The translations under genes were made by a program, and so were the position numbers. A DNA stretch of 64,000 nt from Mycobacterium sp. (GTDB taxonomy: Bacteria; Actinomycetota; Actinomycetes; Mycobacteriales; Mycobacteriaceae), in assembly GCA_051006775.1 (NCBI GenBank), contig JBPCSX010000148.1. The stretch is one strand, 5' to 3'. The notes beneath the pieces were generated by a model. That model was given only the letters and a program-made list of their open reading frames with translations. It had not been told where the DNA came from and did not search any database. Below, piece after piece: positions 1-57,147 of the stretch. Every line of letters begins with the position of its first letter. The stretch's first letter is position 1.

Positions 1-1
1 C

Positions 2-547
2 GAACCCGGTGTGCGGACTGGGATTCCGCTGTTGGTCGACAACCCCAAGGAGGTCGGAGCGGACCGGATCGTCAACTGCCTGGCTGCCTACGCGAAGTTC
101 CAGACCGCTGCGATCGTGGTCGACTTCGGCTCCTCCATCTGCGTGGACGTGGTCTCGGCCAAGGGTGAGTTCCTCGGCGGTGCGATCGCACCGGGCGTAC
201 AGGTGTCCTCCGATGCAGCGGCCGCGCGCTCGGCCGCACTGCGGCGGGTCGAACTGACGCGGCCCCGCTCGGTCATCGGGAAAAACACCGTCGAGTGCAT
301 GCAGTCCGGCGCGGTCTTCGGCTTCGCCGGCCTGGTGGACGGCCTGGTGTCGCGGATCCGAGCCGACGTCGACGGGTTCGCCGGCGATGACGTCACGGTG
401 GTCGCAACCGGCCACACCGCACCCCTGCTACTCCCCGATCTCACCGGTGTCCACCACTACGACAAGCACCTCACCCTCGACGGGCTGCGGCTGGTCTACG
501 AGCGCAATCGGGACGGTCAGCGCGGCCGCCTCAAGCCCGCTCGCTGA
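2..547 (+). CDS. coaX: Type III pantothenate kinase, 5'-truncated by window edge
   Basis: Motifs [26 protein letters not shown]. Upstream of lysS as in the Rv3600c region. Confidence 0.93.
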
Positions 548-2109: not shown

Positions 2110-2212
2110 ACTGCGCAGATTCCATTGACGTTGTAATTTCAGCATCGGTTATGGCACATTAGTTGAAGTAGAAATTGTGCCGTTAGGCGCTAACCGGACA
2201 AACCGAGGAATC

Positions 2213-2557
2213 ATGGCCAAAAAAGTAACCGTCACACTCGTCGACGATTTCGACGGTGAGGGACCCGCCGACGAAACTGTCGAATTCTCGATTGACGGTG
2301 TCAGTTACGAGATCGACCTTTCGGCCCGGAACGCCAAAAAAATCCGTGAGGATTTTAAGCAGTGGATCGACGCCGGTCGCCGGGTCGGCGGTCGTCGCCG
2401 CGGCCGTCCGGGTGGTTCGCCGGGCCGCGGACGGGCCTCGATCGACCGGGAACAGAGCGCGGCCATCCGGGAATGGGCCCGACGCAACGGCCACAAGGTG
2501 TCCACCCGCGGTCGTATTCCGGCCGAGATCATCGAGGCATTCCACGCCGCCGGCTGA
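2213..2557 (+). CDS. lsr2: Nucleoid-associated protein Lsr2
   Basis: [12 protein letters not shown] start, YEIDLS, RGRIP AT-hook. ATG 2213 follows RBS GAGGA. Confidence 0.98.
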
Positions 2558-2577
2558 TCTGCGGCTCCCGGCGCGGT

Positions 2578-2592
2578 TTCGCTCCACGCGAA
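2578..2592. promoter_or_regulatory. Putative ClgR operator TTCGC-N5-GCGAA upstream of clpC1
   Basis: Palindrome TTCGCTCCACGCGAA matches the actinobacterial ClgR motif (CGC-N5-GCG). Confidence 0.6.
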
Positions 2593-2607
2593 GTTGCTGG
2601 TCGGCCG

Positions 2608-2634
2608 GGAAATGTTTTCGCCTCGTCGGCGTTG
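2608..2634 (+). promoter_or_regulatory. Putative ECF (SigH/SigE-type) promoter of clpC1
   Basis: GGAAA-N18-GTTG. Confidence 0.55.
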
Positions 2635-2769
2635 GACTGCTGTATCCACCCCGTGGGGACGGGTACCTGAGCAGGGGAGAACACTCCCCCGCTCCCGCCC
2701 CACTAGAGTGGGCTAACAGGTGCGCGCTGCCCATCGCGGCACCCAGGTGACGGAAGCAGGTAACCACCG

Positions 2770-5289
<2,520 letters not shown>

Positions 5290-13561: not shown

Positions 13562-14227
<666 letters not shown>

Positions 14228-14253
14228 CTGCCCTCCCACTGACGGGGCATTAA

Positions 14254-14910
14254 ATGGCGCACACGGTCGCGATAGTTACGGCGGCCGGCTCTGGTGAACG
14301 GCTGGGCGCCGGTGTACCGAAGGCATTCGTGGATCTCGACGGAAGCACCATGCTTGAGCATGCCGTTGGTGGCCTGCTGGCCTCTGGTGTCATCGATACC
14401 GTGGTAGTCGCCGTTCCGGAGAGCCTCGTCGCGGAAACCACCGCGCTGCTCGCCGGGCGCGCGACTGTGGTCGCCGGTGGTGCGGAGCGGCCGGACAGCG
14501 TCCGGTTGGCGCTGCAGGCCGTCGATGAGGCGGATTTCGTCCTCGTCCACGACGCCGCACGCCCGCTGACACCGTGCGATCAGATACAACGCGTGGTCAC
14601 CGCCCTCATCGAGGGGGTGCGCGCGGTAATCCCGGTGTTGCCCGTCGCCGACACCATCAAGGCTGTCGACGCCAACGGCGCGGTACTCGGCACACCCGAG
14701 CGGGCCGGTCTGCGGGCGGTGCAGACTCCGCAGGGATTCGAGACCGCACTGCTGCGCCGCGCCTACCAGCAGTCCGCATCGGTCACCGACGACGCCTCGC
14801 TGGTGGAGAACCTCGGCGTGCCGGTGCACACCGTCGCCGGTGACCCGCTGGCGTTCAAGGTCACCACCCCCCTGGATCTGCGCCTGGCCAGGGCGGTGCT
14901 CAGCTCATGA
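14254..14910 (+). CDS. ispD: MEP cytidylyltransferase
   Basis: [21 protein letters not shown]. Confidence 0.97.
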
Positions 14911-15386
14911 CGGTGCCCCGGGTCGGTGTCGGCACCGACGTACACCCGATCGAAGGCGGCCGGCCGTGCTGGCTGCTGGGTCTGCTCTTCGAGGGGGCTG
15001 ACGGCTGCTCCGGCCATTCCGATGGTGATGTTGCGGTACACGCGCTGTGCGATGCGCTGCTCTCTGCCGCCGGCCTCGGTGATATCGGATCGGTGTTCGG
15101 TGTCGACCAACCGCAGTGGCGCGGTGTGACCGGCGCCGCGATGCTCACCCACGTCCGGGATCTCCTGACGCAGGCCGGCTTCACGATCGGGAACGCCGCG
15201 GTTCAGGTGATCGCCAACCGCCCCAAGGTCGGCCCGCGACGCGACGAAGCCCAGCGGGTGCTCGCCGATCTGCTCGGCGCCCCGGTATCGGTATCGGCCA
15301 CCACCACCGACGGGCTGGGATTGACCGGTCGCGGCGAGGGGGTGGCCGCCGTCGCCACCGCCTTGATCGTCCCGAATTCCCGGTAA
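14907..15386 (+). CDS. ispF: MEcPP synthase
   Basis: [28 protein letters not shown]. Confidence 0.97.
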
Positions 15387-15397
15387 GCTGCCACGTC

Positions 15398-16822
15398 GTG
15401 ACCACCGGAGCCACCGGCCTTCGTTTGCACGACACCTACACCGGTGCCGTGCGCGAGCTGGTGCCGCTGCGCGCCGGGCAGGTGTCGATCTATCTGTGCG
15501 GCGCCACGGTGCAGAGCCAGCCCCATATCGGGCACGTTCGCAGCGGCGTCGCCTTCGATGTCCTGCGCCGCTGGCTGATGGCTAAGGGATACGACGTGGC
15601 GTTCATCCGCAACGTCACCGATATCGATGACAAGATCCTGACCAAGGCCGCTGAAGCCGGCCGACCGTGGTGGGAGTGGGCCGCCACACACGAACGGGCC
15701 TTCTCGGCCGCCTATGACGCCCTCGGCGTACTGCCGCCGTCGGCCGAGCCCCGCGCGACCGGACACATCACCCAGATCGTCGAACTCATCGAGCGGCTGA
15801 TCGACAGCGGCCATGCCTACCCCTCGGTTCGGGACGGCGACGGCGACGTCTACTTCAACGTGCTGAGTTTTCCCGACTACGGGAAACTCTCCGGGCACCG
15901 GATCGACGATGTCCACCAGGGCGAGGGAGCGGGCACCGGAAAGCGCGACCCACGTGATTTCACCCTGTGGAAGGGCGCCAAACCCGGGGAGCCGTCGTGG
16001 CCGACTCCGTGGGGCCGCGGCCGGCCCGGCTGGCATTCGGAATGCGTGGCCATGGCTCACGAGTACCTCGGCCCGGCTTTCGACATCCATTGCGGCGGAA
16101 TGGATCTGGTCTTCCCCCACCACGAGAACGAGATCGCCCAGGCGCAAGCCGCCGGCGATGGCTTCGCCCAGTTCTGGCTGCACAACGGCTGGGTCACCAT
16201 GGGCGGGGAGAAGATGAGTAAGTCGCTGGGCAACGTGCTGTCGATTCCGGCCGTACTGCAACGGGTCCGGCCCGCTGAACTTCGCTACTACCTGGGCAGC
16301 GCCCACTACCGGTCGATGCTCGAGTTCACCGAGACCGCACTGCAGGACGCCGCCAAGGCATACACCGGCATCGAGGAGTTCCTACACCGGGTCCGGACCC
16401 GGGTTGGCGCAGTGACACCTACGACATGGACCGCGAAGTTCGCCGCCGCCCTCGATGACGACCTCGCAGTTCCCGCCGCACTGGCGGAGGTGCATGCCGC
16501 CCGGGCCGACGGCAACCGGGCGCTGGAAGCCGGTGACCACGAGACTGCGCTGGCAAAAGCCGGCGAAATCCGCTCCATGATGGGCATTCTCGGATGCGAC
16601 CCGCTCGATGAACGCTGGGAGACCCGCGATGAGACGGCGGCCGCCCTGGCCGCCGTCGACGTGCTGGTCCGTGCCGAACTTCACCGCCGCGACGATGCCC
16701 GTCGCGATCGCGATTGGTCGCAGGCCGACGAGATCCGCGATCGACTCAAAAACGCCGGTATCGATGTGACCGATACCTCCGACGGACCGCAATGGGCACT
16801 ACTTGGACAGGACGTGACCTAG
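15398..16822 (+). CDS. cysS: Cysteinyl-tRNA synthetase
   Basis: HIGH and KMSKS motifs, PGWHSEC, FPHHENE. Confidence 0.98.
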
Positions 16823-22226: not shown

Positions 22227-22862
22227 TTAAGCGCTCTCCTCGTCTCCGATCAGCAGCCGGACGGTCAGATCCAGGCGCTTGCTGACATCACTGGCCGAAG
22301 CCCGGCGGGTCAGCCAGGCCAACAGATTGGACAGCCACACATCGGAGATCACCCGGGCTATGTGGTACTGATCCTCGGTCGGCTCGTCGCTCATCGCGCG
22401 GGCGAACATGCTGTCGATGATCTTCTCGACGTGATCCACCTCGCCGGCCGCCGAAGCATCGGCGAAGACATAGGCCCGGGCCATCGCCTCGGTCAGCAGG
22501 GGGTTGCGCTGCATCGCCCGGTTGAGCTTGCCGACCATGAAATTGAGCCGCTGGTAGGGGCTGCCGGTGAGGACGGTTGAGCGGTCGGTTTTGGCGTCGA
22601 TCCGCTCGAACTCCCTGGCCAGCGCCGAGACGAGCAGGTGCACCTTGGACGGGAAGTAGCGATACAGGGTGCCGACGGCGACATCGGCCCGATCGGCCAC
22701 CGCCCGCATCTGGACCGCCTCATAGCCACCTTTGGACGCGATTGCCAGGGTGGCGTCGAGGATGCGCTTACGGCGCTCCCGCTGAGCCTCGGAGCCGAGT
22801 TCGGACTCCGGAAGCACCGATACCGGCAGCACATCGCGTGGCTGCGACCCAGGCGACGACAT
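22227..22862 (-). CDS. kstR: TetR-family cholesterol regulon repressor KstR
   Basis: SEAQRERRKRILDATLAIASKGGYEAVQMRAVA. Divergent from fadE34. Confidence 0.97.
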   Translation of the reverse strand: MSSPGSQPRDVLPVSVLPESELGSEAQRERRKRILDATLAIASKGGYEAVQMRAVADRADVAVGTLYRYFPSKVHLLVSALAREFERIDAKTDRSTVLTGSPYQRLNFMVGKLNRAMQRNPLLTEAMARAYVFADASAAGEVDHVEKIIDSMFARAMSDEPTEDQYHIARVISDVWLSNLLAWLTRRASASDVSKRLDLTVRLLIGDEESA

Positions 22863-23004
22863 TGCTGTCACGACTCCTTCTCGGCGTAGCGGCAGGGCAA
22901 AACGATACGCATCACGCTCGGTCGCGGCACCTCGTCCGGGCACCCGGTGCAGCCGCTGCGCTGCGGTGATGCCCGTCGACTTGACGCTTCCTCACTGGCA
23001 CTAT

Positions 23005-25247: not shown

Positions 25248-25541
25248 CTAATCGTCGTAGGTCACCTCGACGTCGTCGGAAATCGGATGGGCCTGGCACG
25301 CCAGGATCAGCCCCTCGGCGAGGTCGTCGGGTTCAAGCACGTCGTTGGCCTCCATCTCGACCTCACCGCTGACCTTTGTCACGGTGCAGGCCCCGCAGTG
25401 GCCCTCCCGGCAGGAGAACGGCGCCTCGATTCCCCTGTCCAGGAGTACGTCGAGAAGTTTCTCGCCGCGCGGCCACGACACCGTGTGGGTCTGCCCGTCG
25501 AGGTGGACGATGACGGTGGCCGGATCGCCGGTGGAAGCCAT
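25248..25541 (-). CDS. Stand-alone 2Fe-2S ferredoxin equal to the C-terminal domain of KshB
   Basis: APFSCREGHCGAC...GLILACQ, VEVTYD end. Occupies the kshB (Rv3571) position. FAD/NAD domains are absent. Confidence 0.88.
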   Translation of the reverse strand: MASTGDPATVIVHLDGQTHTVSWPRGEKLLDVLLDRGIEAPFSCREGHCGACTVTKVSGEVEMEANDVLEPDDLAEGLILACQAHPISDDVEVTYDD

Positions 25542-25566
25542 GGGCCGAACCACTCCCTTCCAGAAC

Positions 25567-25580
25567 TAGAACACGTTACA
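25567..25580. promoter_or_regulatory. KstR operator
   Basis: TAGAACACGTTACA matches TnnAACnnGTTnnA. Confidence 0.9.
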
Positions 25581-25634
25581 GAAATGACAAATTGGTGAAC
25601 TACCAGCTACGCAAACGTCCTGCTCGACACAAAT

Positions 25635-25648
25635 CGTAACGTGTTCTA
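25635..25648. promoter_or_regulatory. KstR operator with one mismatch
   Basis: CGTAACGTGTTCTA, 36 bp upstream of hsaA ATG. Confidence 0.75.
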
Positions 25649-25684
25649 GTCTGAGGGTCAGAACTGCTCTTCTGGGAGGCATCA

Positions 25685-28654
<2,970 letters not shown>

Positions 28655-28659
28655 CCGCC

Positions 28660-29226
28660 ATGTCGGCTGAACCGATCGATCCTCGCGCGTTCCGTCAGGT
28701 ACTCGGCCAGTTCTGCACCGGGATCACCATCATCACCACCATGCATGAGGGCGAGCCCAACGGTTTTGCCTGCCAGTCCTTCGCTGCACTGTCACTGGAC
28801 CCGCCACTGGTGCTGTTCTGCCCGACCAAGATGTCGAGGTCATGGCAGGCGATCGAGGCCAGCGGGCACTTCTGTGTGAACATCCTGACCGAGGCGCAGC
28901 GCGAGGTGTGCGCCCGGTTCGGGTCGAGGGAACCTGACAAGTTCTCCGGGATCGACTGGCATGAAAGCGGTTTGGGCTCCCCGGTACTGGACGGCTCACT
29001 GGCTCATATCGACTGCACGGTGGCGTCGGTGCATGACGGCGGTGATCACTTCGTGGTGTTCGGCGCCGTGCAGTCGCTATCCGAGGTGCCCAGCGTGAAA
29101 CCCCGACCACTGCTGTTCTATCGCGGTGAGTACACCGGAATCGAGCCGGACAAGAACACTCCGGCGCAGTGGCGTGATGACCTCGAGTCATTCCTGACCA
29201 CCTCCGGCCCGGATACCTGGCTCTAG
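28660..29226 (+). CDS. hsaB: Flavin reductase component of HsaAB
   Basis: IDPRAFRQVLGQFCTG, GGDHFVV, conserved DTWL end. Confidence 0.96.
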   Translation: MSAEPIDPRAFRQVLGQFCTGITIITTMHEGEPNGFACQSFAALSLDPPLVLFCPTKMSRSWQAIEASGHFCVNILTEAQREVCARFGSREPDKFSGIDWHESGLGSPVLDGSLAHIDCTVASVHDGGDHFVVFGAVQSLSEVPSVKPRPLLFYRGEYTGIEPDKNTPAQWRDDLESFLTTSGPDTWL

Positions 29227-32200
29227 TCGGGCATACCGACCAGCACACCCTCTATCGCACCGTCGGTGCCCACCAGCAGTCCCCGGCCAGGTGGCAGCTG
29301 TGCGGCGCTGGTCCGGCCGAACACCTTCACCGCCACGGGATCGTTATCCATAAACAGCGTCGGAGTCCGGGCGCCGGTGAGCTTCTGGAGGAATGGGTTC
29401 ATCGCCGATACGCCAGCCCAGTTTCCGGGCAGCCGGGCGGCGATCACGTGCAGACCGATCTCCCGGCCCCGTTCGATGAGGTTCCACAGCGGGGCCGTGG
29501 CGGCCTGCTGCCCGATTGCGCCGCCGGCGCGAAGTTCCTGCTCGTCGTCGATGAGTACGAAGTGGTGCGGACCTTCCCAGGATCTCCGGCCGAGGAGCTC
29601 AGCCTGTGTCAGGCCCGGTGGTGGCAGGCGACCGGCCATGATGTCGGCGAGTTCTGCGAGCGCGCTGTCGATGTCGACAGCGGTATATGCGTAGGCCCGG
29701 ACAGCGGGCCCCGCGATCCGGCCAATCAGTGTGGTCTTCGGATCGATGATTGTGATCTGAGCCTGCTCGGGCGACAGCCCGGCTGCGATCGCCTGGCCGA
29801 TGGCGGCCAGCGCGCTGGTCTTGCCGCAGCCCTGCCGGCCCATCACGAGCAGATGCGGCAGTTGGCCGGCCGGCAACGCAACGGGTTGTAGTGCGCTCTC
29901 CCCCAGCGCGAACGGAATATCAAACTCGTCCGCGGCCGTACTTCGGTGGGCAGCGAGGATGTCGCGCAATGGAATCCGCCGGGGCAGCCGCGCCAGCGTC
30001 TCCACCTTGCCCATTCCGGTGAGTCCGGTGATGGCAGCGCCGATCTCCCGGGTGGGAATGGCCTCGCCATCGTTTCCACGGAGTTCGGGAAGCCCGATGA
30101 GCAGTTCATGGCCGGTTCTGGTGACGCCGAATCCGGGCCGGTCCACGGTGTTGCGAGCGGCGCGGCGGTGCTCCATCCCGGTGCCCATCGCAGTCTCGTC
30201 CGGATTGCTCAGTCGCAGCTGAATTCTGGCGTTGGCGACGTTCAGTAAGGCCTGCTTCTGCCCTACCAACCAACCGCTTGCGCTGGTGATGATGTGGACC
30301 CCATAGGAAAGCCCCTGTCGCGCAATAGCTATCACCCGGTCTCCGGCGCCGGCATCCTTCTCGTAGAGATCTGCGAAGTTGTCGATGACGAGAAACACGT
30401 CGCCGAACTTGTCTCCCAGATCGGTGTCATGACTTCGCAGTGCCCCAAATCTGCGCTCCCGGAACTCTGCGATGTCTATCTGGAATTGCTTGAATGCAGC
30501 CTCCCTGGCGCGGATCACCCCCTCAACCGTCGCCAGGGTTCGCGACACTCCCTCGGCGTCGGTGACACTGACGACTCCGGCCACATGAGGTATCGCCTCG
30601 ATCGGATATAGCGCCGCTCCGACGCAAAAGAACGTCAGCCTTTCCGGCCGGTACATCAGCGCACCCGCGGTGATCAAGGACATGAGGGTCGTTGACTTCC
30701 CGCGCTGCGCGGTGGCGACGACGATGACATTGTCCATCTCGGCATCGATGACGTGCACCCGTTGGGCGTGGTCCTCGGGAAAGTCCTCCATGCCCACCGG
30801 AAAGACCAGGCCGGGATTGTCGCCATAATCAGCCCACCATGGCTTACCGCGAAAGCGTTCCACGAGTGCGTCGGTGGGCTCGCTGACCTCCAGGGGCGGT
30901 AGCCAGATGCGGTGCGGCGGTCGGGCGGGATGCGCGGCGAGTGATTCACGGATGACGTCGAGGAGCTTCATCTTCTTGAATCCGTCTTGGTGATAGAGGT
31001 ATCTGTCTGGCTCGTCCGGCTGGTCGGCGGCCGCAAGTGCACGGTTGTCCTCAGCACTGAGAGGCTGGTACTCCAAGTTCAGTGATCGAGGCTGGGTGAA
31101 GGAGACCGAGACCGCGGTGTCCGGTTTGGGGAGCTTCGGGACGACGAAGGGTGCTGAGACGTAGAAGCAGCGGAACTGCTCAAGTTCGCGAGGACCGACC
31201 TTGAGAAGTGCGTAGCCATTCTCCTTCGACGGCAGGTGCAGTGCGGCATCGCTACCGATGAGGTCTCGGGAATCCTCGGCCGTCTCAGCCCGTAGCGCGA
31301 CCCGGAAGGCAATGTTGCTCTTGGCCTTGCTCAACGAGGACAGATCCAGGCGCTGTCCCCCGAGGGTGAAGAAGACATTGCAGCCGCGTCCCTCCTGCCC
31401 GATGTGTATGACGAGATCGATCCAGTCCGGATGGTGATGGAAGAGTTCGAGGTATTCATCGATGATCACCAGCAGGATCGGTACCGGCTCGAGGTCACGG
31501 CCGGCCAGCCGCATCTCCTCGTATTCGTTGGCGTCCCTGGCCCCGGCGTCCTTGAAAAGGCGGTAGCGGCGGGCCAGCTCGCCGTCTATCGCTTTGCGCA
31601 TCCTCTCAGCAAGGTGTCGCTCATCGCTGCCGAGATTAGACAGCGAACCCACCACATGCGGCAATCCTTCGAGGTCCTGGGCAGCTGACTCAAACTTCAT
31701 ATCGACGAAGATGACGATGAAGGTCTCCGGTGAATGTGTCAGTGCGATCCCGTTGCACAACGACAGGAAATATTCGGACTTTCCCGAGCCTGAAGTGCCG
31801 ACGACCACCGAGTGGAAGCCATAACCGCCGAAGTCCTTCGCCCGCAGAATGACATGCTGGAGATCACCACCGGGGCGAACACCGACAGGAATCATCGCCC
31901 AGCGCGCATCTCCTCGGCCTCGGCTCTCCGCCCATAACCGGTCCATATCAAGGTTCCTGGGGTCGCTGATACCCAAGGCTCGCAACAGTTCCCCGCCCCC
32001 GCCGTCAGTCTCGGGGAGTTCGGCAGCGATAGCCGGCGACCAACGCGCCATCGTCCGCCCGTAGCGACCGGCCGTGCTCTCGGGGAGCAGATCAGCGACG
32101 GCATAGAAGGATCCGCGATGGGTCAGGCGGCCCTCCCGGAGTTCGAAGCTCTGCTCGTCGCGGCCGAATCCGACGCCGGTTCCGGTCCGTGCGGCAAGTC

Positions 32201-33302
32201 GTAGCACGGTTATCCCGGCCATCCCCTTCTGGCCGGTGACGGCTTCCCACTGCTCCGGTGTGCCGGTGCCGTCATCGACGATTACCCAATGCGGTCCCAG
32301 TCCTGGCGGACCGGCGGCGTTCGTCGGCGACAGCGCCGCGATCGGGCCGGCCCCGACGGGTGGGGTCCATGGACCGCGCCCCTTGCGGTGTAGTTCGGCA
32401 TCGAGTACCTCCTCGAGCTCGGTCGGTGAGGCAAACACCAGCCGCCGCGGCCCGCAGGCATCGACCATGTCGTCGTGTTGGTTATGCGGTAGCCACACCA
32501 GCCACGACCACTGTTCTGGATGCCGGGTCACCACCAGCAGCTTCACATCAGCGGGACTGTGGTGGACTGCCACCGAGCACAGCAGTGAGCGCGTCAGTGC
32601 CCGCAGTTGCGTCACATCGTCACTGATGAAGCTGAATCCAGGTTGCGAACACAGACTCAGCACTTTCGGAATGCCGCGAATCCTGCTCTGTTCCAGCATG
32701 AAATCGCGCAGCGCCCGACCGGTAACCGGCTCGAGTTCTTCGCCGACCGGGACGTCGGGCCACTGCAGTGATACACCGGAGTCCGCGGTCGACTGAACGC
32801 CGGTGCCGAGTCGCACATCGAGGAAGTCCGGATCGGCCGGCCGCCGCTCCCACATCCGCGGTCCGCCGATCACATGAGCGAGCTGCTGCGGATCGCCGTG
32901 CACGAAGGTCTGGCTGCTGCGCTGTTGGTGGGCAGCCCGCTGAATCTCTGCGCGGTCCTCGTCGAGCCGACGTAGGTAGGTCCTGCGCTGCTTCTCCTGT
33001 TCACCCCAGGTGATCCGGCGGGTGCGACCGAGCCGGCCACTGAACATCAACGAGCCGAACCCGACGAGTCCGATCAACGGAAACAGTCCGGACTGCAGGG
33101 ATCGCACTCCGGACGTGTACATCACCAGGATCGTGCCCAGAATTCCCACCAGGAGGGCCGGGGCAGCGATCATCAGCAGGAGGTTGCGCGGCTCGCGCTC
33201 CGGCAGAGCAAGTGGTGCTGGGACGGCAACGCGGAGCGGCGAAACCATCGGGACGGGTGCCCGAACGCCCCGGACGAACCCTTTCTTCGTCATCTCAGCC
33301 AT
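29223..33302 (-). CDS. eccC: Type VII secretion FtsK/SpoIIIE ATPase EccC, unsplit, ESX-2-like
   Basis: 1359 aa. Two N-terminal TM helices, GGPRMWER, GTSGSGKS plus IIDE, AQRGKS, GRQGCGKT, LPPGRGLL. Recalled closeness to EccC2 (LPEREPRN, LEPVTG.ALRDF). Confidence 0.92.
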   Translation of the reverse strand: MAEMTKKGFVRGVRAPVPMVSPLRVAVPAPLALPEREPRNLLLMIAAPALLVGILGTILVMYTSGVRSLQSGLFPLIGLVGFGSLMFSGRLGRTRRITWGEQEKQRRTYLRRLDEDRAEIQRAAHQQRSSQTFVHGDPQQLAHVIGGPRMWERRPADPDFLDVRLGTGVQSTADSGVSLQWPDVPVGEELEPVTGRALRDFMLEQSRIRGIPKVLSLCSQPGFSFISDDVTQLRALTRSLLCSVAVHHSPADVKLLVVTRHPEQWSWLVWLPHNQHDDMVDACGPRRLVFASPTELEEVLDAELHRKGRGPWTPPVGAGPIAALSPTNAAGPPGLGPHWVIVDDGTGTPEQWEAVTGQKGMAGITVLRLAARTGTGVGFGRDEQSFELREGRLTHRGSFYAVADLLPESTAGRYGRTMARWSPAIAAELPETDGGGGELLRALGISDPRNLDMDRLWAESRGRGDARWAMIPVGVRPGGDLQHVILRAKDFGGYGFHSVVVGTSGSGKSEYFLSLCNGIALTHSPETFIVIFVDMKFESAAQDLEGLPHVVGSLSNLGSDERHLAERMRKAIDGELARRYRLFKDAGARDANEYEEMRLAGRDLEPVPILLVIIDEYLELFHHHPDWIDLVIHIGQEGRGCNVFFTLGGQRLDLSSLSKAKSNIAFRVALRAETAEDSRDLIGSDAALHLPSKENGYALLKVGPRELEQFRCFYVSAPFVVPKLPKPDTAVSVSFTQPRSLNLEYQPLSAEDNRALAAADQPDEPDRYLYHQDGFKKMKLLDVIRESLAAHPARPPHRIWLPPLEVSEPTDALVERFRGKPWWADYGDNPGLVFPVGMEDFPEDHAQRVHVIDAEMDNVIVVATAQRGKSTTLMSLITAGALMYRPERLTFFCVGAALYPIEAIPHVAGVVSVTDAEGVSRTLATVEGVIRAREAAFKQFQIDIAEFRERRFGALRSHDTDLGDKFGDVFLVIDNFADLYEKDAGAGDRVIAIARQGLSYGVHIITSASGWLVGQKQALLNVANARIQLRLSNPDETAMGTGMEHRRAARNTVDRPGFGVTRTGHELLIGLPELRGNDGEAIPTREIGAAITGLTGMGKVETLARLPRRIPLRDILAAHRSTAADEFDIPFALGESALQPVALPAGQLPHLLVMGRQGCGKTSALAAIGQAIAAGLSPEQAQITIIDPKTTLIGRIAGPAVRAYAYTAVDIDSALAELADIMAGRLPPPGLTQAELLGRRSWEGPHHFVLIDDEQELRAGGAIGQQAATAPLWNLIERGREIGLHVIAARLPGNWAGVSAMNPFLQKLTGARTPTLFMDNDPVAVKVFGRTSAAQLPPGRGLLVGTDGAIEGVLVGMPD

Positions 33303-34800
33303 CCCCGCCGGCCATCGGCGACATATCGTTACTGGTGATCCCTCGCCCCGACCCCAGCGGCGTTATCGAGTCACGGGACACCAGGGCATCGGACCGGGTG
33401 ATCGCCGGCCCGGCCGCGAAGGTACGCAGGAGCGGCCATGGCGCCTGGGCGGCGCGATCGGGATCTATTGCCAACGCGCTCAACGTCTCTCGGTCTCTTT
33501 CGATCCCATACCGGACGCCCTGCGGCGACACCCAGAAGAGGCTCTCGCGGGTGTCACCGACGAGGCCGCCACCTGTCGATGCGACGAAGTTGGCCGCGCC
33601 CGGGATCATCAGGGTGTGCTGCGCTTCCGTCGAGTCCGGACCGCGGCTGTCGCGCACCAGGCTGACGATGCGGTCATCCAGGGATTGCGGTGTCGGCAGG
33701 CCACGTCCGGAGAAGATCGACACCGCCGCCTGCCGGTCGGTACCGCGTTTGGTCCAACTCACGCAGGTGACCGGGTTGGCAACGGTGTCGATGAAACTCA
33801 GCCGCCCGGTGGGATAGAAGTCCACCTCAAGACCATCGATCTCGGGAATGTGGACCAGGGTGTCCGGTGCGATCAGTTGCGGCTGGGTCACGCCGTGGCT
33901 GTCGGCGGCGCGCAAGAGGTCGGCAACGAATGCGGTGATCTTCTGAACCCCGTTGGCCAGGAGCACATAGAACCCGTTGACCGTTCCGGCGGCGTCGCGG
34001 GTCTGGAGGACACGGCCGACGACCGAACCTGGAAGTAGCCGCGACGGGCTACCCGCCCCCGCAACCGTGGGAACGACCAGGGGTTCAGTCGCGGGCATCG
34101 CATCGAAGAGCGCATTGGAGATGGCAACGGGGTGGACTGCCGCGGTGTCGAGCCCGAGGTTGAAGGTGACCGCTCGGTCCCCTGGGTCGATCCGGGCCCT
34201 TCTGCCGTTCCAGATCAGGTAGGTGGCGTCGTCATGGGTGGCAAGCACGGCCTGGTTCTCCGTCATCACCTGGGCTCGACCCGCACCGGTGAGCTGTCCG
34301 GCGATCGCGGTGACCGTCGGCGCCGCATTGCCGCCGTAGGCAGACGCGGTGTCACAGACCGCCCAGGCCGAGACCGGGTCACCGGACACTGGAAGTTCTC
34401 CCGGGAGTCCCGGGATGCCGATCAACGGTCCGGTGGGGTACTTGTCGATCTCCGACGCCGTCACCCAGGTCGGTGCAGCTGGGCTTCCGGTGGCCAACCG
34501 GGCCGAGGTGAGGTTGAGCGCCGGGTGCAACCGTCCGTCGACTTTCGCATACAGCGCGCCGGTGGAGCGGTTTCCGATTATCGGAGACTGCCCGGCCAGG
34601 CCGGCCGGCTTCATCACCTGCAGCAGGGCCATCCATCCACAGACCAGGGCGACGAACACTGCGGAGAGGGCGAGCGCGGCCTGCTGTTTGCGGTCGTCAT
34701 GTTTCATCCGCACCGAGAACCGGGTGATGGCGGCCCGCAGGCGGCGGTTGTAAAACAGGTGACCCGAGTTTTGGTCCCGGTTTGACAGATTCAGTGGCAC
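33295..34800 (-). CDS. eccB: Type VII secretion membrane component EccB, ESX-2-like
   Basis: PLNLSNRDQNSGHLFYNRRLRAA...MKHDDRKQ resembles the EccB2 N-terminus. One TM, PALNLTSARL, conserved Cys pair, GVRYGI. Confidence 0.92.
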   Translation of the reverse strand: MPLNLSNRDQNSGHLFYNRRLRAAITRFSVRMKHDDRKQQAALALSAVFVALVCGWMALLQVMKPAGLAGQSPIIGNRSTGALYAKVDGRLHPALNLTSARLATGSPAAPTWVTASEIDKYPTGPLIGIPGLPGELPVSGDPVSAWAVCDTASAYGGNAAPTVTAIAGQLTGAGRAQVMTENQAVLATHDDATYLIWNGRRARIDPGDRAVTFNLGLDTAAVHPVAISNALFDAMPATEPLVVPTVAGAGSPSRLLPGSVVGRVLQTRDAAGTVNGFYVLLANGVQKITAFVADLLRAADSHGVTQPQLIAPDTLVHIPEIDGLEVDFYPTGRLSFIDTVANPVTCVSWTKRGTDRQAAVSIFSGRGLPTPQSLDDRIVSLVRDSRGPDSTEAQHTLMIPGAANFVASTGGGLVGDTRESLFWVSPQGVRYGIERDRETLSALAIDPDRAAQAPWPLLRTFAAGPAITRSDALVSRDSITPLGSGRGITSNDMSPMAGGDG

Positions 34801-34813
34801 GACCGCCCCCGGA

Positions 34814-35131
34814 TCATTGAAGACCCTCGCCGTAGCGGGCCTCATGGTCACACAGCGCCTCATCCCGGAGCGCCGCGAACGCGGTGTTGAGCCGTTCCGC
34901 CAGTTCGGTGTGGCTGTAGATCACCATCGCATCGGGGTGCAGGGTCAGCTCGATGAGTTTGCCGTCGGCGTTCGCGACCGCGTGAATATCGCCCATATCC
35001 ACGCTGTAGGTGACGGCTTCAGCCGCTGCCAGATCGGCCTCCCAGCGATCTGTCAAAGCGGTGAGATCGCGTAGGACGGCGTCGACTGTCGCCCTGTCGC
35101 TAAGTCCGTAATCCCCCGTTGACCCCTCCAT
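34814..35131 (-). CDS. Rv0030/DUF2710-like small ESX-associated protein; minus strand, track label + is wrong
   Basis: LSDRATVDAVLRDL...VTYSVDMGDIHAVANADGKLIELTLHP...ARYGEGLQ recalled as close to Rv0030. TGA is the reverse complement of TCA 34814-34816. Confidence 0.78.
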   Translation of the reverse strand: MEGSTGDYGLSDRATVDAVLRDLTALTDRWEADLAAAEAVTYSVDMGDIHAVANADGKLIELTLHPDAMVIYSHTELAERLNTAFAALRDEALCDHEARYGEGLQ

Positions 35132-35137
35132 CGGCAC

Positions 35138-35166
35138 AGTATTTCGGCGGGTTTGAACTGCGTCAA
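35138..35166 (-). promoter_or_regulatory. Putative SigA promoter for the DUF2710-eccB-eccC unit, leaderless
   Basis: TTGACG-N17-AATACT-N6-ATG. The -10 lacks its first T. Confidence 0.45.
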
Positions 35167-35451
35167 TTCACTTTTTGAAACTTGTTGACAATGAATAGAG
35201 GCTGATTCTCAGCAATATCTCAGGTAACATCCGTCACCCCGGAATCGGCGCGCAAGAACCGCGGACTGTCAGGCATTTCACCCTCTCCGGCTGGGCGATC
35301 CGGCGACACCGCCCTCACACGAAAACATTTGCTGGAGGGACCTCTCCAGGGGAGGGTCGCGGGCTCACTACGCTGAAGCCGACCGAGTAACAGGAGGCCG
35401 CCTTGAGCGGTAACGGCGTCCGGAATGACCGCGCCCACGGGCGCCCCACAA

Positions 35452-35495
35452 AACACTGAGGTCACGACCTCTTTCGAGTTCGTGACCTCAGTGTT
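35452..35495 (-). terminator. Long hairpin terminator downstream of tRNA-Leu
   Basis: Perfect 16-bp arms AACACTGAGGTCACGA / TCGTGACCTCAGTGTT. U-rich exit on the minus strand. Confidence 0.85.
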
Positions 35496-35512
35496 CGCAG
35501 CTCATAGAACTG

Positions 35513-35595
35513 TGGGCGAAGGGGGACTTGAACCCCCACGTCCCGAAGGACACTGGCACCTGAAGCCAGCGCGTCTGCCATTCCGCCACTCGCCC
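35513..35595 (-). tRNA. leuT: tRNA-Leu(CAG), 83 nt, CCA not encoded
   Basis: GGGCGAGTGGCGGAATGGCAGACGCG...CTGGC-TTCAGGT-GCCAG, long variable arm, GTTCAAGTC. Confidence 0.97.
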
Positions 35596-35768
35596 GAAAC
35601 AACCGGGGGAGCGTATCACGATCGAAGGCTCGCCCTGCAACCACGGTAGTGACTGCTGACCTGCGGCGATACGATTCTCAGGGTTCTCCTGCCGCCAGTC
35701 TGCACAGCCCGGCCGATACCATGAGCACTGGCGGTCGACCGCCCTGAACCGGAGGTGGATGCGCGTCG

Positions 35769-37172
35769 ATGAGTAACCAGAAGGGGCTGGTTCAGCGCAT
35801 CGAACGCATGCTGGAGGACGGCGTGGGGGATGCGTTCGCCCGAGTATTCGGCGGATCGGTGGTCCCGCAGGAACTGGAAGCCCTGCTGCGCCGGGAGGCC
35901 TCCGACGGCGTCCGGGCGTTGGCGGGCGGACGGTCTTTGGTTCCCAACGAATACGTCATTACCCTCAGTGTGTCCGACTTCCAGAAGTTGAGCGCGGATC
36001 GCGATCTCACCACCGAGGCCTTCGCCAAACACCTGGAGGAATACCTTCAGGAGCAGGGGTGGCAAACGTATGGTGAGGTGGTCGTCCGTCTCGACCGGTC
36101 GGAGAGCCTGCACACCGGCCAGTACCGGGCCCGCGCGGTCGTCAACCCCGACGTGGCCGCCCGCCATGACCCCCGCCTGTCCGCCCCGGCACCCAGACCA
36201 GCAGAATCGAACCATGCGTACACCGCAGAACCAGGAGCACCAGCGATGACCGACAATCCTTACGGCCAGGGCCAGGGGCGTCCCGGCGACGAGTATTACG
36301 ACGAGCAGCGCTACCCGCAGGATGAGCCGCGTCCGGCCGCACCCGAGCAGCCGCGTGCCCCCTACCATCCGGAACAGGGCTACCCGCCCAACTACGAGCA
36401 GGGCTATCCGCCCCGCCCGGCCTACCCGGATCAGGGCGGTTACTACCCGCCCGGATACGAGCAGCGGCCCCCGGCCCCCGGCTATGGCGCCCCCGGCTAT
36501 GGCGCCCCCGGCTACGACCAGGGCTACCGCCAGGCGCCCCCGCCCGGTTACGGCCAGCCGCAGTACGGACCGCCCCCCGGCTACGGGCCGCCGGCCGGAG
36601 ACTATGACTACAACCAGGGGCGCCCGACTCCCCGCTACGACGAGCCCGGCTACGGGCGGCCCGAGTCCCGTCCGGCCTATCCCGACCAGGGCTATCAACA
36701 GCCCGGTTACGGTCGCCCGGAGTACGGGCAGCCCGAGTACGGCCGCTATGACCAGGGCGGCTACCCGCCGCCCCCGGCCGCTGAATACGACTACGGACAA
36801 CCGGGCGGCGGACAACAGGGTGGCGGCCAGCAGGCCGGCTACGCCGGGTACCCCCCGCCGGCCGGCCCGGGTGAGTACGCCGCCGCCCAGGCGGTGACGC
36901 TGCAGCTCGACGACGGCAGCGGGCGCACCTACCAGCTCCGTGAGGGTGCCAATGTGATCGGTCGCGGCCAGGACGCCCAGTTCCGGCTGCCCGACACCGG
37001 GGTGTCGCGCCGGCATCTGGAGATCCGCTGGGACGGTGCTGTCGCGCTGTTGTCGGACCTGAACTCCACCAACGGCACCACCGTTAACAACGCTCCGGTC
37101 CAGGAGTGGCAGCTCGCCGACGGCGACGTCATCCGGGTCGGCCACTCCGAGATCATCGTCCGCGTTCACTGA
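35769..37172 (+). CDS. fhaA: FHA-domain protein FhaA (DUF3662, PGY-rich linker, FHA)
   Basis: VVPQELE, long Y/G/P/Q repeats, IGRGQD...GVSRRH...STNGT. Confidence 0.96.
   Translation: MSNQKGLVQRIERMLEDGVGDAFARVFGGSVVPQELEALLRREASDGVRALAGGRSLVPNEYVITLSVSDFQKLSADRDLTTEAFAKHLEEYLQEQGWQTYGEVVVRLDRSESLHTGQYRARAVVNPDVAARHDPRLSAPAPRPAESNHAYTAEPGAPAMTDNPYGQGQGRPGDEYYDEQRYPQDEPRPAAPEQPRAPYHPEQGYPPNYEQGYPPRPAYPDQGGYYPPGYEQRPPAPGYGAPGYGAPGYDQGYRQAPPPGYGQPQYGPPPGYGPPAGDYDYNQGRPTPRYDEPGYGRPESRPAYPDQGYQQPGYGRPEYGQPEYGRYDQGGYPPPPAAEYDYGQPGGGQQGGGQQAGYAGYPPPAGPGEYAAAQAVTLQLDDGSGRTYQLREGANVIGRGQDAQFRLPDTGVSRRHLEIRWDGAVALLSDLNSTNGTTVNNAPVQEWQLADGDVIRVGHSEIIVRVH
36480..36515 (+). repeat. 15-bp coding tandem repeat (GYGAP) in the FhaA linker
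   Basis: GGCTATGGCGCCCCC x2 plus GGCTAC. Confidence 0.8.
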
Positions 37173-37301
37173 GGTCGGCACCCCAAGGTGGCTTCGGCCT
37201 CGCATCCTGCGGCGTCCAAGTATTCTGTGACGTTGCCGGAGTCGGCCCGGTTTTTCCGTCGTCGCCGAGGCTGAGATCACGGCACAAGGACGGAGGGCCG
37301 C

Positions 37302-37769
37302 ATGCAGGGACTGGTACTGCAGCTGACCCGTGCCGGTTTCCTGCTGCTGCTGTGGCTGTTCATTTTCTCGGTGTTGCGCATCCTGCGGACCGATATCTAC
37401 GCACCGTCGGGTTCGGTGATGGTGCGGCGAGGCCTGACGTTGCGCGGACCGCGGGCCACCGCCGGGCAGGCTCGGACCGCGGCTCGCTATCTGGTGGTCA
37501 CCGAGGGTGCGCTCGCCGGAACGCGGATCACCCTGGGCTCCCAGCCGGTGCTGATCGGCCGCGCCGATGACTCCACCCTTGTCCTCACCGACGACTACGC
37601 CTCGACCCGGCACGCTCGCCTGGCTCAGCGTGGTCCGGATTGGTACGTCGAGGATCTCGGCTCCACTAACGGCACCTACCTCGATCGGTCGAAGGTGACA
37701 ACCGCAGTGCGGGTTCCGCTCGGTACGCCGGTGCACGTCGGCAAGACCGTGATCGAGTTGCGCCCGTGA
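37302..37769 (+). CDS. fhaB: Membrane FHA protein FhaB/FipA
   Basis: MQGLVLQLTR TM start, IGRADDS, ASTRHA, GSTNGT. Confidence 0.96.
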   Translation: MQGLVLQLTRAGFLLLLWLFIFSVLRILRTDIYAPSGSVMVRRGLTLRGPRATAGQARTAARYLVVTEGALAGTRITLGSQPVLIGRADDSTLVLTDDYASTRHARLAQRGPDWYVEDLGSTNGTYLDRSKVTTAVRVPLGTPVHVGKTVIELRP

Positions 37770-39178
37770 CCCTGGCCCTTCGCTACGCCGCCCGCAGCGA
37801 CCGCGGACTGGTGCGCGCCAACAACGAGGACTCGGTCTACGCCGGAGCCCGCCTACTTGCGCTCGCCGACGGTATGGGAGGGCACGCCGCTGGTGAAGTC
37901 GCCTCCCAACTGGTAATCGCCGCGCTGGCGCATCTCGACGATGACGAACCGGGCGGCGATCTGCTCAGCAAGCTGGAATCCGCTGTGCACCAGGGGAACT
38001 CGGATATCGCCGACCAGGTGGAGTTGCACGCCGAACTGGAGGGTATGGGGACCACCCTCACCGCCATCCTGTTTGCCGGCGACCGGCTCGGACTGGTCCA
38101 TATCGGCGACTCCCGCGGTTACCTACTGCGCGACGGGGAGCTGACCCAGATCACCAAGGACGACACCTTCGTACAGACCCTCGTGGACGAGGGCCGGATC
38201 ACCGCGGAGGAGGCGCACAGCCATCCGCAGCGATCGCTGATCATGCGGGCGCTGACCGGACACGAGGTAGAGCCGACGCTGATCATGCGCGAGGCGCGGA
38301 TCGGCGACCGTTACCTGCTGTGCTCCGACGGTCTGTCCGATCCGGTCAGTCACGAGACCATCCTTGAGGCCCTGAAGGTCGGCGACGCGACCGAAAGCGC
38401 AGACCGGCTGATCGAACTCGCTCTGCGCGGCGGCGGCCCCGACAACGTCACCGTGGTGGTGGCCGACGTTGTCGACCACGACTTCGCCGGACAGACGCAA
38501 CCGATTCTGGCCGGGGCGGTCTCCGGCGAGGACGATGACGTCAAGCCGCCGAACACCTCTGCCGGACGGGCCTCGGCCATCGCGCCGCGCCAGCCGGCCG
38601 CGAAAAAGCTTGTGCTGGAACCGCAACCGCCGGCCCCGAGATCGCGTCGTCCCTTGTTCATCGCAGCACTTCTGGTCGCGATCGCCCTGCTCAGCGCCGT
38701 AGGGATCGGCTACAGGACGATTCAGGGTAATTACTACGTCACTGCGTACAACGACTCGGTTGCGATCATGCGCGGCATTCAGGGCTCGTTCCTCAGCGTT
38801 CCGCTGCAGAAACCGTTCCTGCTGGGCTGCCTCAGCGATCGCAACGTGTTGTCCCAGATCAGTCCGGATCAGGCCGACTCGCAACGGGACTGCAAACTGT
38901 TCGCCGTTGGAGACCTCAGACCGTCAGAGCGCGCCCAGGTGACGGCGGGCCTGCCGGCCGGCACCCTGGACAGCGCGATCCACCAGCTCAACGAGTTGTC
39001 CCACGGCTCACTACTTCCGATCTGTCCACCCCCGCAGGCGGCGAAACCAACGCCGGCCCCGACCGCCAAACCGACCACCGCGCCCAAGAGTGGCCCGACC
39101 ACGTCGGCTCCGCCGACAAGCGCGAGTCTTCCTGCCCCGCAACAAAAACCCGGTGTCGACTGTCGGGCGGCAACATGA
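37766..39178 (+). CDS. pstP: PP2C-family Ser/Thr phosphatase
   Basis: RANNED, ADGMGGH, CSDGL, GGPDNVT, then a TM helix. Confidence 0.97.
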   Translation: MTLALRYAARSDRGLVRANNEDSVYAGARLLALADGMGGHAAGEVASQLVIAALAHLDDDEPGGDLLSKLESAVHQGNSDIADQVELHAELEGMGTTLTAILFAGDRLGLVHIGDSRGYLLRDGELTQITKDDTFVQTLVDEGRITAEEAHSHPQRSLIMRALTGHEVEPTLIMREARIGDRYLLCSDGLSDPVSHETILEALKVGDATESADRLIELALRGGGPDNVTVVVADVVDHDFAGQTQPILAGAVSGEDDDVKPPNTSAGRASAIAPRQPAAKKLVLEPQPPAPRSRRPLFIAALLVAIALLSAVGIGYRTIQGNYYVTAYNDSVAIMRGIQGSFLSVPLQKPFLLGCLSDRNVLSQISPDQADSQRDCKLFAVGDLRPSERAQVTAGLPAGTLDSAIHQLNELSHGSLLPICPPPQAAKPTPAPTAKPTTAPKSGPTTSAPPTSASLPAPQQKPGVDCRAAT

Positions 39179-47054: not shown

Positions 47055-47075
47055 CAGCAATAACAACCGTGTGAT

Positions 47076-47107
47076 TCATCCCCACTGTGGATAACGTCTG
47101 TGGATAA
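47076..47107. promoter_or_regulatory. DnaA-box cluster outside oriC
   Basis: Perfect TGTGGATAA at 47086-47094 and 47099-47107. Degenerate TCATCCCCA at 47076-47084. Confidence 0.88.
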
Positions 47108-47547: not shown

Positions 47548-47570
47548 TCAACCGGCGCCGGGTGACACTC

Positions 47571-55923: not shown

Positions 55924-57117
55924 TCAGCCGGGCAGGCGGACCGGCATCAGCAGGTACACGTAATCGGTGTCCCCGGCTGGGAACGGGCCCACTGATGAGT
56001 CGTCCGGAGCGCTGTCACCAGCGGGCCGCAGCACCGCCGGCTTACTGGCCGTGGTGAATCCGAAGGTCACCCGATCACTGTGCAATGAGCCGAGACCATC
56101 GGTCAGGTAAGTCGGGTTGAAAGCAATGGTCAACGGTTCTCCGACGAAGTCGACCGCGAGATCCTCTTCGGCCAGACCCACGCCGTCAGCACCACCGGCC
56201 GCCAGGTGCAGCACATCGGCGGCGAACTCCATCCGGACTTGGGCACCGCGGTCGGCGACCAGGGCCACTCGTTTGATGGCGTCGGTGAGCTCGGCCACCC
56301 CGACGGTCGCCAGCGCAGTGTGCTCAGTGGGTAGCAGCTGACGAAATTTCGGGAACTCGGTGTCCAGCAGGCGCGTGGTGCTGCGCTTTCCGGCACTGCG
56401 AATTCCGAGGAGACGTTCCTCGCCAACCGACGCGCCGGCGCCCAGCGCGAGGTGGACATCGGAACCAGAAGTCACAGCCTTGGCGGCTTCGGCGAGGGTT
56501 TTCGCCGGGACCAGAACCGCGGCATCGACACCCGGGGAGTTGGTGGACCATGTGAGTTCCCGTACGGCCAGGCGGAACCGGTCGGTTGCTGAGAGGACCA
56601 CCTTGTCACCGGAAATCTCGACCCGGATTCCGGTCAGCATCGGCAGGGTGTCATCTCGACCGGCGGCGACCGCAACCTGTCCCACGGCCTCGGTGAACAG
56701 GTCGGCAGCAACCACGCCGGTCTCCGCCGGGAGCGTCGGAAGAGCCGGGTAGTCCTCGACCGGCATGGCGGGGAGGGAAAATTTTGCACTCCCACAACTC
56801 AGAAGAACACGATTTCCGTCGACGCTGACGTCGACGGGCTTGGCCGGCAAGGCCCGGGTGATATCCGACAAAAGACGCCCGGAGAACAAAACTGTTCCCG
56901 GAGAAGCGATTTCGGCGGGAATGAGCACTTCACTGGACACGTCGTAGTCGAATCCGGCGATTTTCAGACCTTCGTCGGATCCGGTGATCAACACGCCGGC
57001 CAGGACGGGGACGGCCGGCCGGCTGGGAAGACTCCGGGCCACCCAGGCAACCGCATCGGCGAAATCCTCACGGACCAGGCGAAATCTCAAATCGGAGCCC
57101 ACCGTTGTGGTCGCCAC
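55924..57117 (-). CDS. dnaN: DNA polymerase III beta clamp
   Basis: [35 protein letters not shown]. Confidence 0.98.
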
Positions 57118-57147
57118 GTTCAATCGTGTCCCTTCATCACCCGGCAA

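Follow-up and report, generated by a model that had tools for sequence, protein, structure and literature searches.

How did hsaB and eccC, two genes that in other mycobacteria lie hundreds of kilobases apart, come to share the letters of their stop codons? The question is raised by a 64,000-nt stretch of DNA (hereafter the window) from Mycobacterium sp. (GenBank assembly GCA_051006775.1, contig JBPCSX010000148.1), which is part of the 97.5-kb contig C148 of the draft genome G000 (3.52 Mb in 254 contigs, N50 21.5 kb, 93.6% complete). In the window hsaB is on the + strand and eccC, from a putative ESX-2-type locus for type VII secretion, is on the - strand. Positions 29215-29231 read CCTGGCTCTAGTCGGGC, in which the hsaB TAG takes up 29224-29226 and the eccC TAG (CTA on the + strand) 29223-29225, and the two stops overlap on the palindrome CTAG with a spacer of zero, as the initial annotation had recognised from the sequence. 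That annotation took the junction for a break in synteny, brought about by an inversion or translocation within one replichore ending exactly at eccC, or by a misassembly. Our analysis leaves us highly confident that the junction (J2) is real and is the derived scar of a chromosomal inversion.

The hsaB-eccC junction and its reciprocal

A query spanning the junction was compared with 400 sampled genomes of the genus. The adjacency is absent from 398 of these, with homology ending at query position 577, which is window position 29226, and the break in synteny is thus genuine. G220 is the only genome among the 400 found to match the query from end to end, at 82% identity. In the genomes without the junction the hsaCB and eccC parts are 410-455 kb apart; in the complete 6.10-Mb genome G021, which we use as reference for gene order together with the canonical G370, they are at 5.3395 Mb and 5.795 Mb. 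A third carrier, bin79 (G417), turned up on scanning species representatives with HsaB. One of its contigs, 169.7 kb long, is collinear with window 25248-35242 and then again from 35507 onward. The carriers are a clade of small-genome, uncultured freshwater mycobacteria. The initial annotation had allowed that the adjacency might be ancestral across the clade, and this is so for the small clade but not beyond it.

Public runs holding the junction were also found, and their run-level Logan contigs were aligned to 22-40 kb of the window. In run X2, from freshwater sediment, an 861-nt contig (record 13) crosses 28710-29570 with 3 mismatches, and in run X3, from aquaculture and a different study, a 706-nt contig (record 19) crosses 28876-29581 with 45 mismatches (about 93.6% identity), both being gapless.

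The comparison with G021 gives the form of the rearrangement. Window 1-29226 is collinear with the minus strand of G021 5339528-5388514, and 29236-35174 matches the plus strand of G021 5794967-5800938. The enclosed segment has kept its internal order and is reversed relative to both flanks, its interior beyond the window being inferred from separate contigs. Two small G000 contigs, C59 and C99, match the genes that directly follow eccC in G021. C59, whose first base is 210 nt upstream of PE, has PE, PPE, two WXG100 genes, EspG, a ParA-like ATPase, EccD and MycP, and C99 has the end of MycP, EccE and EccA. Over its first 91 nt C59 overlaps, with 91% identity, the end of the reverse-complemented contig C4, and that end of C4 consists of the last codons and TGA of an aspB-like aminotransferase gene, C4 matching the G021 region beyond hsaB. 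The initial annotation had guessed that PE, PPE, esx, eccD and mycP would lie at the reciprocal junction, and C59 bears this out. The same aspB-PE junction (J2') is seen in other assemblies. In G220 contigs C251 and C220 overlap there by exactly 55 nt; aspB and PE are contiguous in a JGI contig (Ga0116182_1003536) whose junction sequence has 99.7% identity to that of G220; and contig C101 of bin79 carries aspB and then PE through mycP without interruption.

The ancestral state can be seen in relatives. The aspB and hsaB genes are convergent neighbours, 0.8-18 kb apart, in G281, G055, G370, G090 and G021, and aspB adjoins hsaB in 31 of the best 80 HsaB loci, which we took as a separate set; the eccB-eccC-PE locus is intact in G370 and G021. 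Where there was aspB next to hsaB and PE next to eccC, there is now aspB next to PE and hsaB next to eccC, and the four flanks have thus been paired anew in the way an inversion predicts. One break would have fallen in the former hsaB-aspB gap, no more than about 12 nt past the hsaB stop, and the other in the former eccC-PE gap, no more than about 12 nt past the eccC stop; everything from hsaB to PE would then have been flipped within one replichore to give J2 and J2'. With the reciprocal junction in hand, an inversion within one replichore ending exactly at eccC, as first proposed, is the form that we retain. In G021 the flipped interval measures 455 kb, and the G000 contigs assigned to it add up to at least about 290 kb, on the assumption of no further rearrangement.

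With both breaks so close to a stop codon (about 12 nt at most), the upstream region of PE, with its presumed promoter, stays attached to PE, and selection on the inversions that survive could explain this placement. In G370 the canonical aspB-hsaB and eccC-PE spacers have only chance-level matches of up to 13 nt in common, and since no repeats were found at the canonical breakpoints we infer that the ends were put together by illegitimate joining. Inverted repeats or a mobile element would be expected of an inversion by homologous recombination, but they are no defining trait of inversions in general.

With regard to the aspB-PE junction itself, JGI contig Ga0116182_1003536 has a 660-nt cassette exactly at this point (L083:3425-4206), which is absent from G220 and carries a PIN toxin gene and a weak VapB-like match. 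Four assemblies end 100-270 nt upstream of PE, and presence or absence of the cassette is the probable reason.

The stop-codon overlap is a separate matter. The HsaB C-terminus, DTWL, is unchanged in G000, G220 and G021, and the final residue of EccC is the same in these three and in G370, so that neither gene has been truncated. In G220 the hsaB TAG is followed by TTCCGCGGAGCC (12 nt) and then TCA; G220 has thus kept the eccC TGA stop of canonical genomes, and its 12 nt resemble the sequence 3' of eccC in G370. Relative to G220, G000 is missing 16 nt, with CTCTAGT and CCTCAGT as flanks, and by this loss the eccC stop became TAG and the CTAG overlap was formed. The compact overlap of bin79 is the same, written TTAA. 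The two flanking sequences are short repeats, between which the 16 nt would have been lost, presumably by slippage, in the G000 and bin79 lines after the inversion. As these sequences read, the CTAG interlock is a later, secondary tightening of a junction that was already tight. It is like the convergent gene pairs of compact genomes that overlap on a four-nucleotide palindrome (CTAG or TTAA), with CTAG in G000 and TTAA in bin79, but differs in that the overlap is secondary, through loss of a 12-nt spacer at a rearrangement junction, the spacer still being there in G220. No intrinsic terminator and no sigma-70-like promoter was found in 28.4-30.0 kb.

A probable inversion across oriC and the orientation of genes to the fork

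Homology to G021 5794967-5800938 stops at 35174, in the upstream region of eccB, and homology to G021 32522-36177, on the opposite strand, begins at 35449, close to a tRNA-Leu gene. This second junction, J1, is common to G281, G220 and bin79. Its counterpart, J1', is on G000 contig C54, which runs down from 5.816 to 5.803 Mb of G021 and then switches to 74.8 kb and runs up to 86 kb, a region beyond tRNA-Leu on the other side of the replication origin (oriC). Such a switch is to be expected if a segment had been inverted that extended from just upstream of DUF2710-eccB, by way of oriC, as far as the tRNA-Leu beside fhaA; this event would have given J1 and J1' and placed oriC about 21 kb from eccB. 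In G281 all three points are on one 1.1-Mb contig (its C4), at about 242 kb (J1), 263 kb (oriC) and 471 kb (J1'), and the inversion thus spans oriC asymmetrically, with about 21 kb to one side and about 208 kb to the other. It looks to be the older of the two inversions on this comparison of gene orders, because G281 has J1 and J1' and yet keeps aspB beside hsaB. A BLAST comparison of J1 and J1' in G000 gave no repeats above chance. An inverted repeat, CACTGAGGTCACGA...TCGTGACCTCAGTG, is present at 35455-35495, just beyond tRNA-Leu on the J1 side, and was seen as a reverse self-match by BLAST.

Two other schemes were considered and rejected. The first is derivation of the G000 order from a G281-like order by one further inversion, which would put aspB beside the G281-type flank and not beside PE. 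The other is an origin-symmetric inversion between replichores: the younger event is one-sided, as both of its breakpoints (5.34 and 5.795 Mb of G021) fall to one side of oriC, and the older one is asymmetric. The initial annotation was thus right that no simple origin-symmetric flip will do, a second, older inversion spanning oriC asymmetrically being needed in addition.

Mycobacterial oriC sits in the dnaA-dnaN gap, and on C148 the GC skew changes sign at this gap, from -0.0135 on the left to +0.0237 on the right. The distance from J2 to the gap is 27.9-28.4 kb, in agreement with the 28 kb first estimated. A scan for DnaA boxes does not single out the gap, which has one near-consensus box (57395), and there are two boxes upstream of dnaA and two at 47086-47107. 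The latter pair consists of two copies of the DnaA-box-like TTATCCACA, 13 nt apart on the - strand, between the frame ending at 47066 and that starting at 47562.

When an inverted segment includes oriC its genes remain co-directional with the fork, which is not so for an inversion within a single replichore. The genes from lysS through hsaB now point toward oriC because the later inversion lay within one replichore, and this event would have turned lysS, clpC1, carD, ispD and cysS head-on to the fork. The initial annotation had lysS, clpC1, carD, ispDF and cysS facing oriC, and all of these are indeed on the + strand, clpC1 being identified by its position, apart from ispF, which is not annotated.

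It had also suggested that GC skew would show whether the flip was recent. Judged from sequence divergence the event is old, as synonymous divergence (dS) between G000 and G220, both of which carry the inversion, is 0.5-1.0, and the GC skew neither confirms nor dates the flip. We thus have a natural case in which essential genes (lysS, the Clp ATPase gene at the clpC1 position, carD, ispD and cysS) have long been head-on near the origin, and such long-tolerated genes bear on the strength of selection for gene-strand bias in slow-growing bacteria with small populations.

Objections and alternative readings

Several points weigh against the reconstruction given above. G000 is itself a draft of 254 contigs, and its aspB-PE junction is not contiguous, the evidence there being that two contig ends overlap by 91 nt, with 8 mismatches. 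At neither canonical breakpoint did we find a repeat or mobile element that would explain the break. For the inverted block the skew is -0.003, as compared with the value of about +0.03 that a fresh flip should show and that of about -0.013 for a block that had re-equilibrated; in the inverted G000 contigs pooled it is equal to the G021 value, -0.005 in both, and the signal is too weak in this genus to test or date the flip. The position of oriC was assigned from gene position and the sign of the skew only, and the order of the inversions assumes that G281 branches outside the group of G000, G220 and bin79. There is also a conflict over the 16-nt loss, which is common to G000 and bin79 although HsaB of G220 is closer to that of G000 (94% identity) than is that of bin79 (90%), and either the loss arose twice or the identity of a single gene misleads.

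Many bacterial inversions are ascribed to recombination between copies of insertion sequences or other repeats. The present case differs in that no repeat was found, and in that one event is within a single replichore and has left essential genes head-on, while the other is asymmetric across oriC.

Of the other readings of J2, the first is that hsaB next to eccC is the ancestral arrangement and that the order of G021 and M. tuberculosis is derived. The adjacency is after all common to three species-level genomes and one further population. However, it is absent from all but two of the 400 sampled genomes and is found in only 2 of the best 80 HsaB loci, whereas the convergent aspB-hsaB pair and the eccC-PE adjacency are both widespread, and the small-genome relatives G281 and OZ248467.1 carry the canonical aspB-hsaB pair. 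The intact ESX order is also that of M. tuberculosis ESX-2. We consider this reading very improbable.

It is just as hard to credit that a 5.9-kb DUF2710-eccB-eccC cassette was translocated, or inserted by horizontal transfer, between hsaB and tRNA-Leu, as an orphan whose remainder has been lost. Two non-ancestral junctions do bound such a cassette, and it adjoins a tRNA gene, a common site of insertion. However the ancestral flanks have been paired again reciprocally, aspB with PE and the eccB upstream region with the region beyond tRNA-Leu, and moving a cassette would not yield that. The partner genes, PE through eccA, are present once, on C59 and C99, and match the genes 3' of eccC in G021 and G370, and the G+C content across the cassette is not distinctly atypical.

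Weakest of all is an assembly chimera, two loci of one or two organisms misjoined at a short common sequence, which may be suspected in a low-coverage draft (Logan word depth about 5x) where two intact genes abut exactly, but which can be dismissed, and with it the misassembly first allowed for, since contigs made run by run in a different pipeline bridge J2 in two samples, one of them from the other study and 6% diverged, two further species-level metagenome-assembled genomes (MAGs), G220 and bin79, have the same adjacency, and the predicted reciprocal junction exists. We thus keep to the inversion as the explanation of J2. A suspicious-looking junction in a fragmented MAG could in this case be resolved from public data alone, for which run-level contigs, sister MAGs and the reciprocal junction sufficed.

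The split locus of putative ESX-2 type and other lineages

The younger inversion would have cut the ESX-2-type locus into two units. The ESX genes are not in one cluster in G000: DUF2710-eccB-eccC is on C148, PE-PPE-esx-espG-ParA-eccD-mycP-eccE-eccA is on C59 and C99, and the break falls between eccC and PE. Matches to NCBIfam or Pfam models are above cut-off for EccB, EccC, EccD, MycP, EccE, EccA, EspG, the PE/PPE pair and the WXG100 pair, and G000 has a full machine of putative ESX-2 type, conserved and split over two loci. The assignment to type fits the third ATPase domain of EccC, which scores 227 bits to M. tuberculosis EccC2 (PDB 6jd5) as against 117 bits to EccC5, and the gene order, which is like that of M. 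tuberculosis ESX-2 (Rv3884c-Rv3895c). Compared over their full lengths, EccC and EccB come nearest to the ESX-5 proteins, ESX-5 being the nearest type with a full-length structure.

A hidden Markov model search gave a single EccB in G000 and in G220, where G021 has three EccB genes, and tblastn gave a single EccC, EccD and MycP in G000. Apart from the ESX-2-type system G000 seems to have no type VII secretion, and no ESX-1, ESX-3 or ESX-4 paralogues were seen in it. A sole system of ESX-2 type is unusual for a mycobacterium, the completeness of G000 being 93.6%.

Between G000 and G220 the ratio of nonsynonymous to synonymous divergence (dN/dS) is 0.10 for EccC, 0.19 for EccB and 0.21 for DUF2710 in the one half, and 0.14 for PE, 0.17 for PPE and 0.08 for each of the EsxB-like and EsxA-like proteins in the other. 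By this measure both halves are shown to have been under purifying selection since the split (0.08-0.21), and as the ratios are low in both the divided secretion system is probably still used.

The locus resembles M. tuberculosis ESX-2 in gene set and order, with eccB, fused eccC, PE, PPE, two esx genes, espG, a ParA-like gene, eccD, mycP, eccE and eccA, but is cut between eccC and PE with the halves roughly 0.3 Mb apart; and where M. tuberculosis has five ESX systems, in G000 one was found. Type VII systems with distant loci that act in trans are known, as in the case of espACD for ESX-1 and of M. marinum ESX-6, a partial duplication of ESX-1 (PMC13354803). However in those cases it is accessory or substrate genes that are apart, whereas here core parts have been separated, EccB and EccC from EccD, MycP and EccE.

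The boundary between eccC and PE is also altered in other lineages. In G281 a TetR gene abuts eccC and PE is on another contig, and the eccC flank derives from G021 5.656-5.672 Mb, inverted. In the lake-metagenome contigs L087, L091 and L092, PE-PPE-EspG is preceded by still other genes, while the eccC-PE order is canonical in seven lake-metagenome contigs, and EccC is likewise present upstream of PE in L108 and L110. The aspB-PE junction of G000, G220 and bin79, the TetR-eccC junction of G281 and the three lake contigs together hint at repeated breakage between eccC and PE, in at least three lineages. We offer as a tentative suggestion, which may well prove wrong, that this boundary is a recurrent breakpoint in genome-reduced freshwater mycobacteria, and that the two-part system still works as their only type VII system. 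Such recurrent breaks may be tolerated by selection, or the site may be mechanically fragile. That L091 and L092, in which PE follows sequence like that of contig C226, represent the reciprocal of the G281 rearrangement was considered and rejected, as the parts map to different G281 contigs.

Other observations on these lineages can be added. In G281 the TetR TAG is right at the end of eccC, and the eccC frame seems to continue into the TetR gene (L037:18831-19660; C4, about 234.8-235.7 kb); G281 eccB (C4:239864-241215) has an internal TGA and a frame break, which may be decay or a long-read indel error. In lake-metagenome contigs L067-L071, L074, L076-L082, L088, L093, L097 and L099, PE-PPE is directly behind a homologue of C96:6.7-11.8 kb and EspG was undetected; G000 has no PE-PPE at C96:6.7-11.8 kb. 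OZ248467.1 (L138), from a lake MAG series, is a closed Mycobacteriaceae chromosome of 3,260,318 nt and keeps the canonical hsaB-aspB pair.

With regard to precedents, large inversions have been reported in M. avium subsp. paratuberculosis Type S (PMC10619280) and in M. shottsii (PMC9241763), mycobacteria with degenerating or reduced genomes, and the situation reported is similar, with large fixed inversions in a shrunken genome, flanking gene content being kept and only order and orientation changed. Our literature search found such general reports of mycobacterial inversions and none on this lineage or on any split ESX-2 locus, and look-ups with the exact PE, EsxA-like and HsaB proteins gave no further records. 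What we describe is an ordinary kind of genome change, here unusually well documented, with two fixed inversions in a reduced-genome lineage. It reveals no new kind of system, and the split but conserved sole ESX-2-type system and the long-tolerated head-on essential genes are its side results.

The features of the window are listed in Table 1. The gene order to the left of J2 is that of M. tuberculosis Rv3598c to Rv3567c; this part also has rlmB on the + strand, and mutY, disA and radA are with kstR on the - strand. The model scores for the Clp ATPase are all under the curated cut-offs, and the name clpC1 comes from adjacency to lysS and 87-89% DNA identity to relatives. The true start of dnaA is near 59.1 kb, although the open frame extends to 59957. 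To the right of J1 fhaA-fhaB-pstP is collinear with G021 32.5-36.2 kb.

Table 1. Positions of genes, junctions and other features in the window, with the basis for each
Feature	Position	Strand	Basis and remarks
lysS	571-2109	+	NF001756, 620 bits; far end, within the window, of the inverted Rv3598c-to-Rv3567c-like block
Clp/Hsp100 ATPase at clpC1 position	2770-5289	+	ClpB/ClpA-family models, E 1e-239 to 1e-303
carD, ispD and an open reading frame containing cysS	13658-16822	+	CarD_C and CarD_TRCF_RID; TIGR00453 (ispD); TIGR00435 (cysS)
kstR, repressor of cholesterol catabolism	22227-22943	-	NF033703, 324 bits
hsaA	25685-26869	+	NF045629, 668 bits
hsaD	about 26870-27749	+	NF045632, 502 bits
hsaC	about 27755-28654	+	NF045631, 558 bits
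hsaB	28660-29226	+	NF045630, 317 bits (cut-off 230); last gene of inverted segment
J2, CTAG interlock of hsaB and eccC TAGs	29223-29226		Junction of younger inversion; comparison with G220 and bin79
eccC, fused three-ATPase gene, putatively ESX-2 type, intact, 1359 aa	29223-33302	-	TIGR03924, 2-673/673; TIGR03925, 1-563/564
eccB, intact	33295-34863	-	TIGR03919, 1-456/457, 452 bits; sole EccB in G000
DUF2710 gene, first of eccB-eccC unit	34814-35137	-	PF10921, 125 bits
J1, breakpoint interval between eccB upstream region and tRNA-Leu	35174-35449		Older inversion; homology to G021 switches
tRNA-Leu(CAG)	35512-35595	-	ARAGORN; conserved neighbour of fhaA
fhaA, fhaB, pstP	35769-39178	+	NF049868, NF033484; start of Rv0020c-to-Rv0014c-like block of oriC segment
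dnaN	55924-57147	-	TIGR00663, 332 bits
dnaA-dnaN gap, taken as oriC	57148-57599		Gene position and sign of GC skew
dnaA	57600-59100	-	TIGR00362, 495 bits, residues 331-779 of 785-aa frame

In the case of the DUF2710 gene, survival from a leuT-linked cluster was considered as its origin and rejected: in G021 it adjoins eccB at 5.80 Mb, far from tRNA-Leu, and by this contiguity belongs to the ESX locus. The lysS region is collinear, in reversed orientation, with G021 5.34-5.39 Mb. G021 carries about 12 kb (5375733-5387987) between its matches to window 1-528 and 634-5270 that is not in G000, and this loss at 528-634 is one of several deletions by which the block went from 49 kb to 29 kb.

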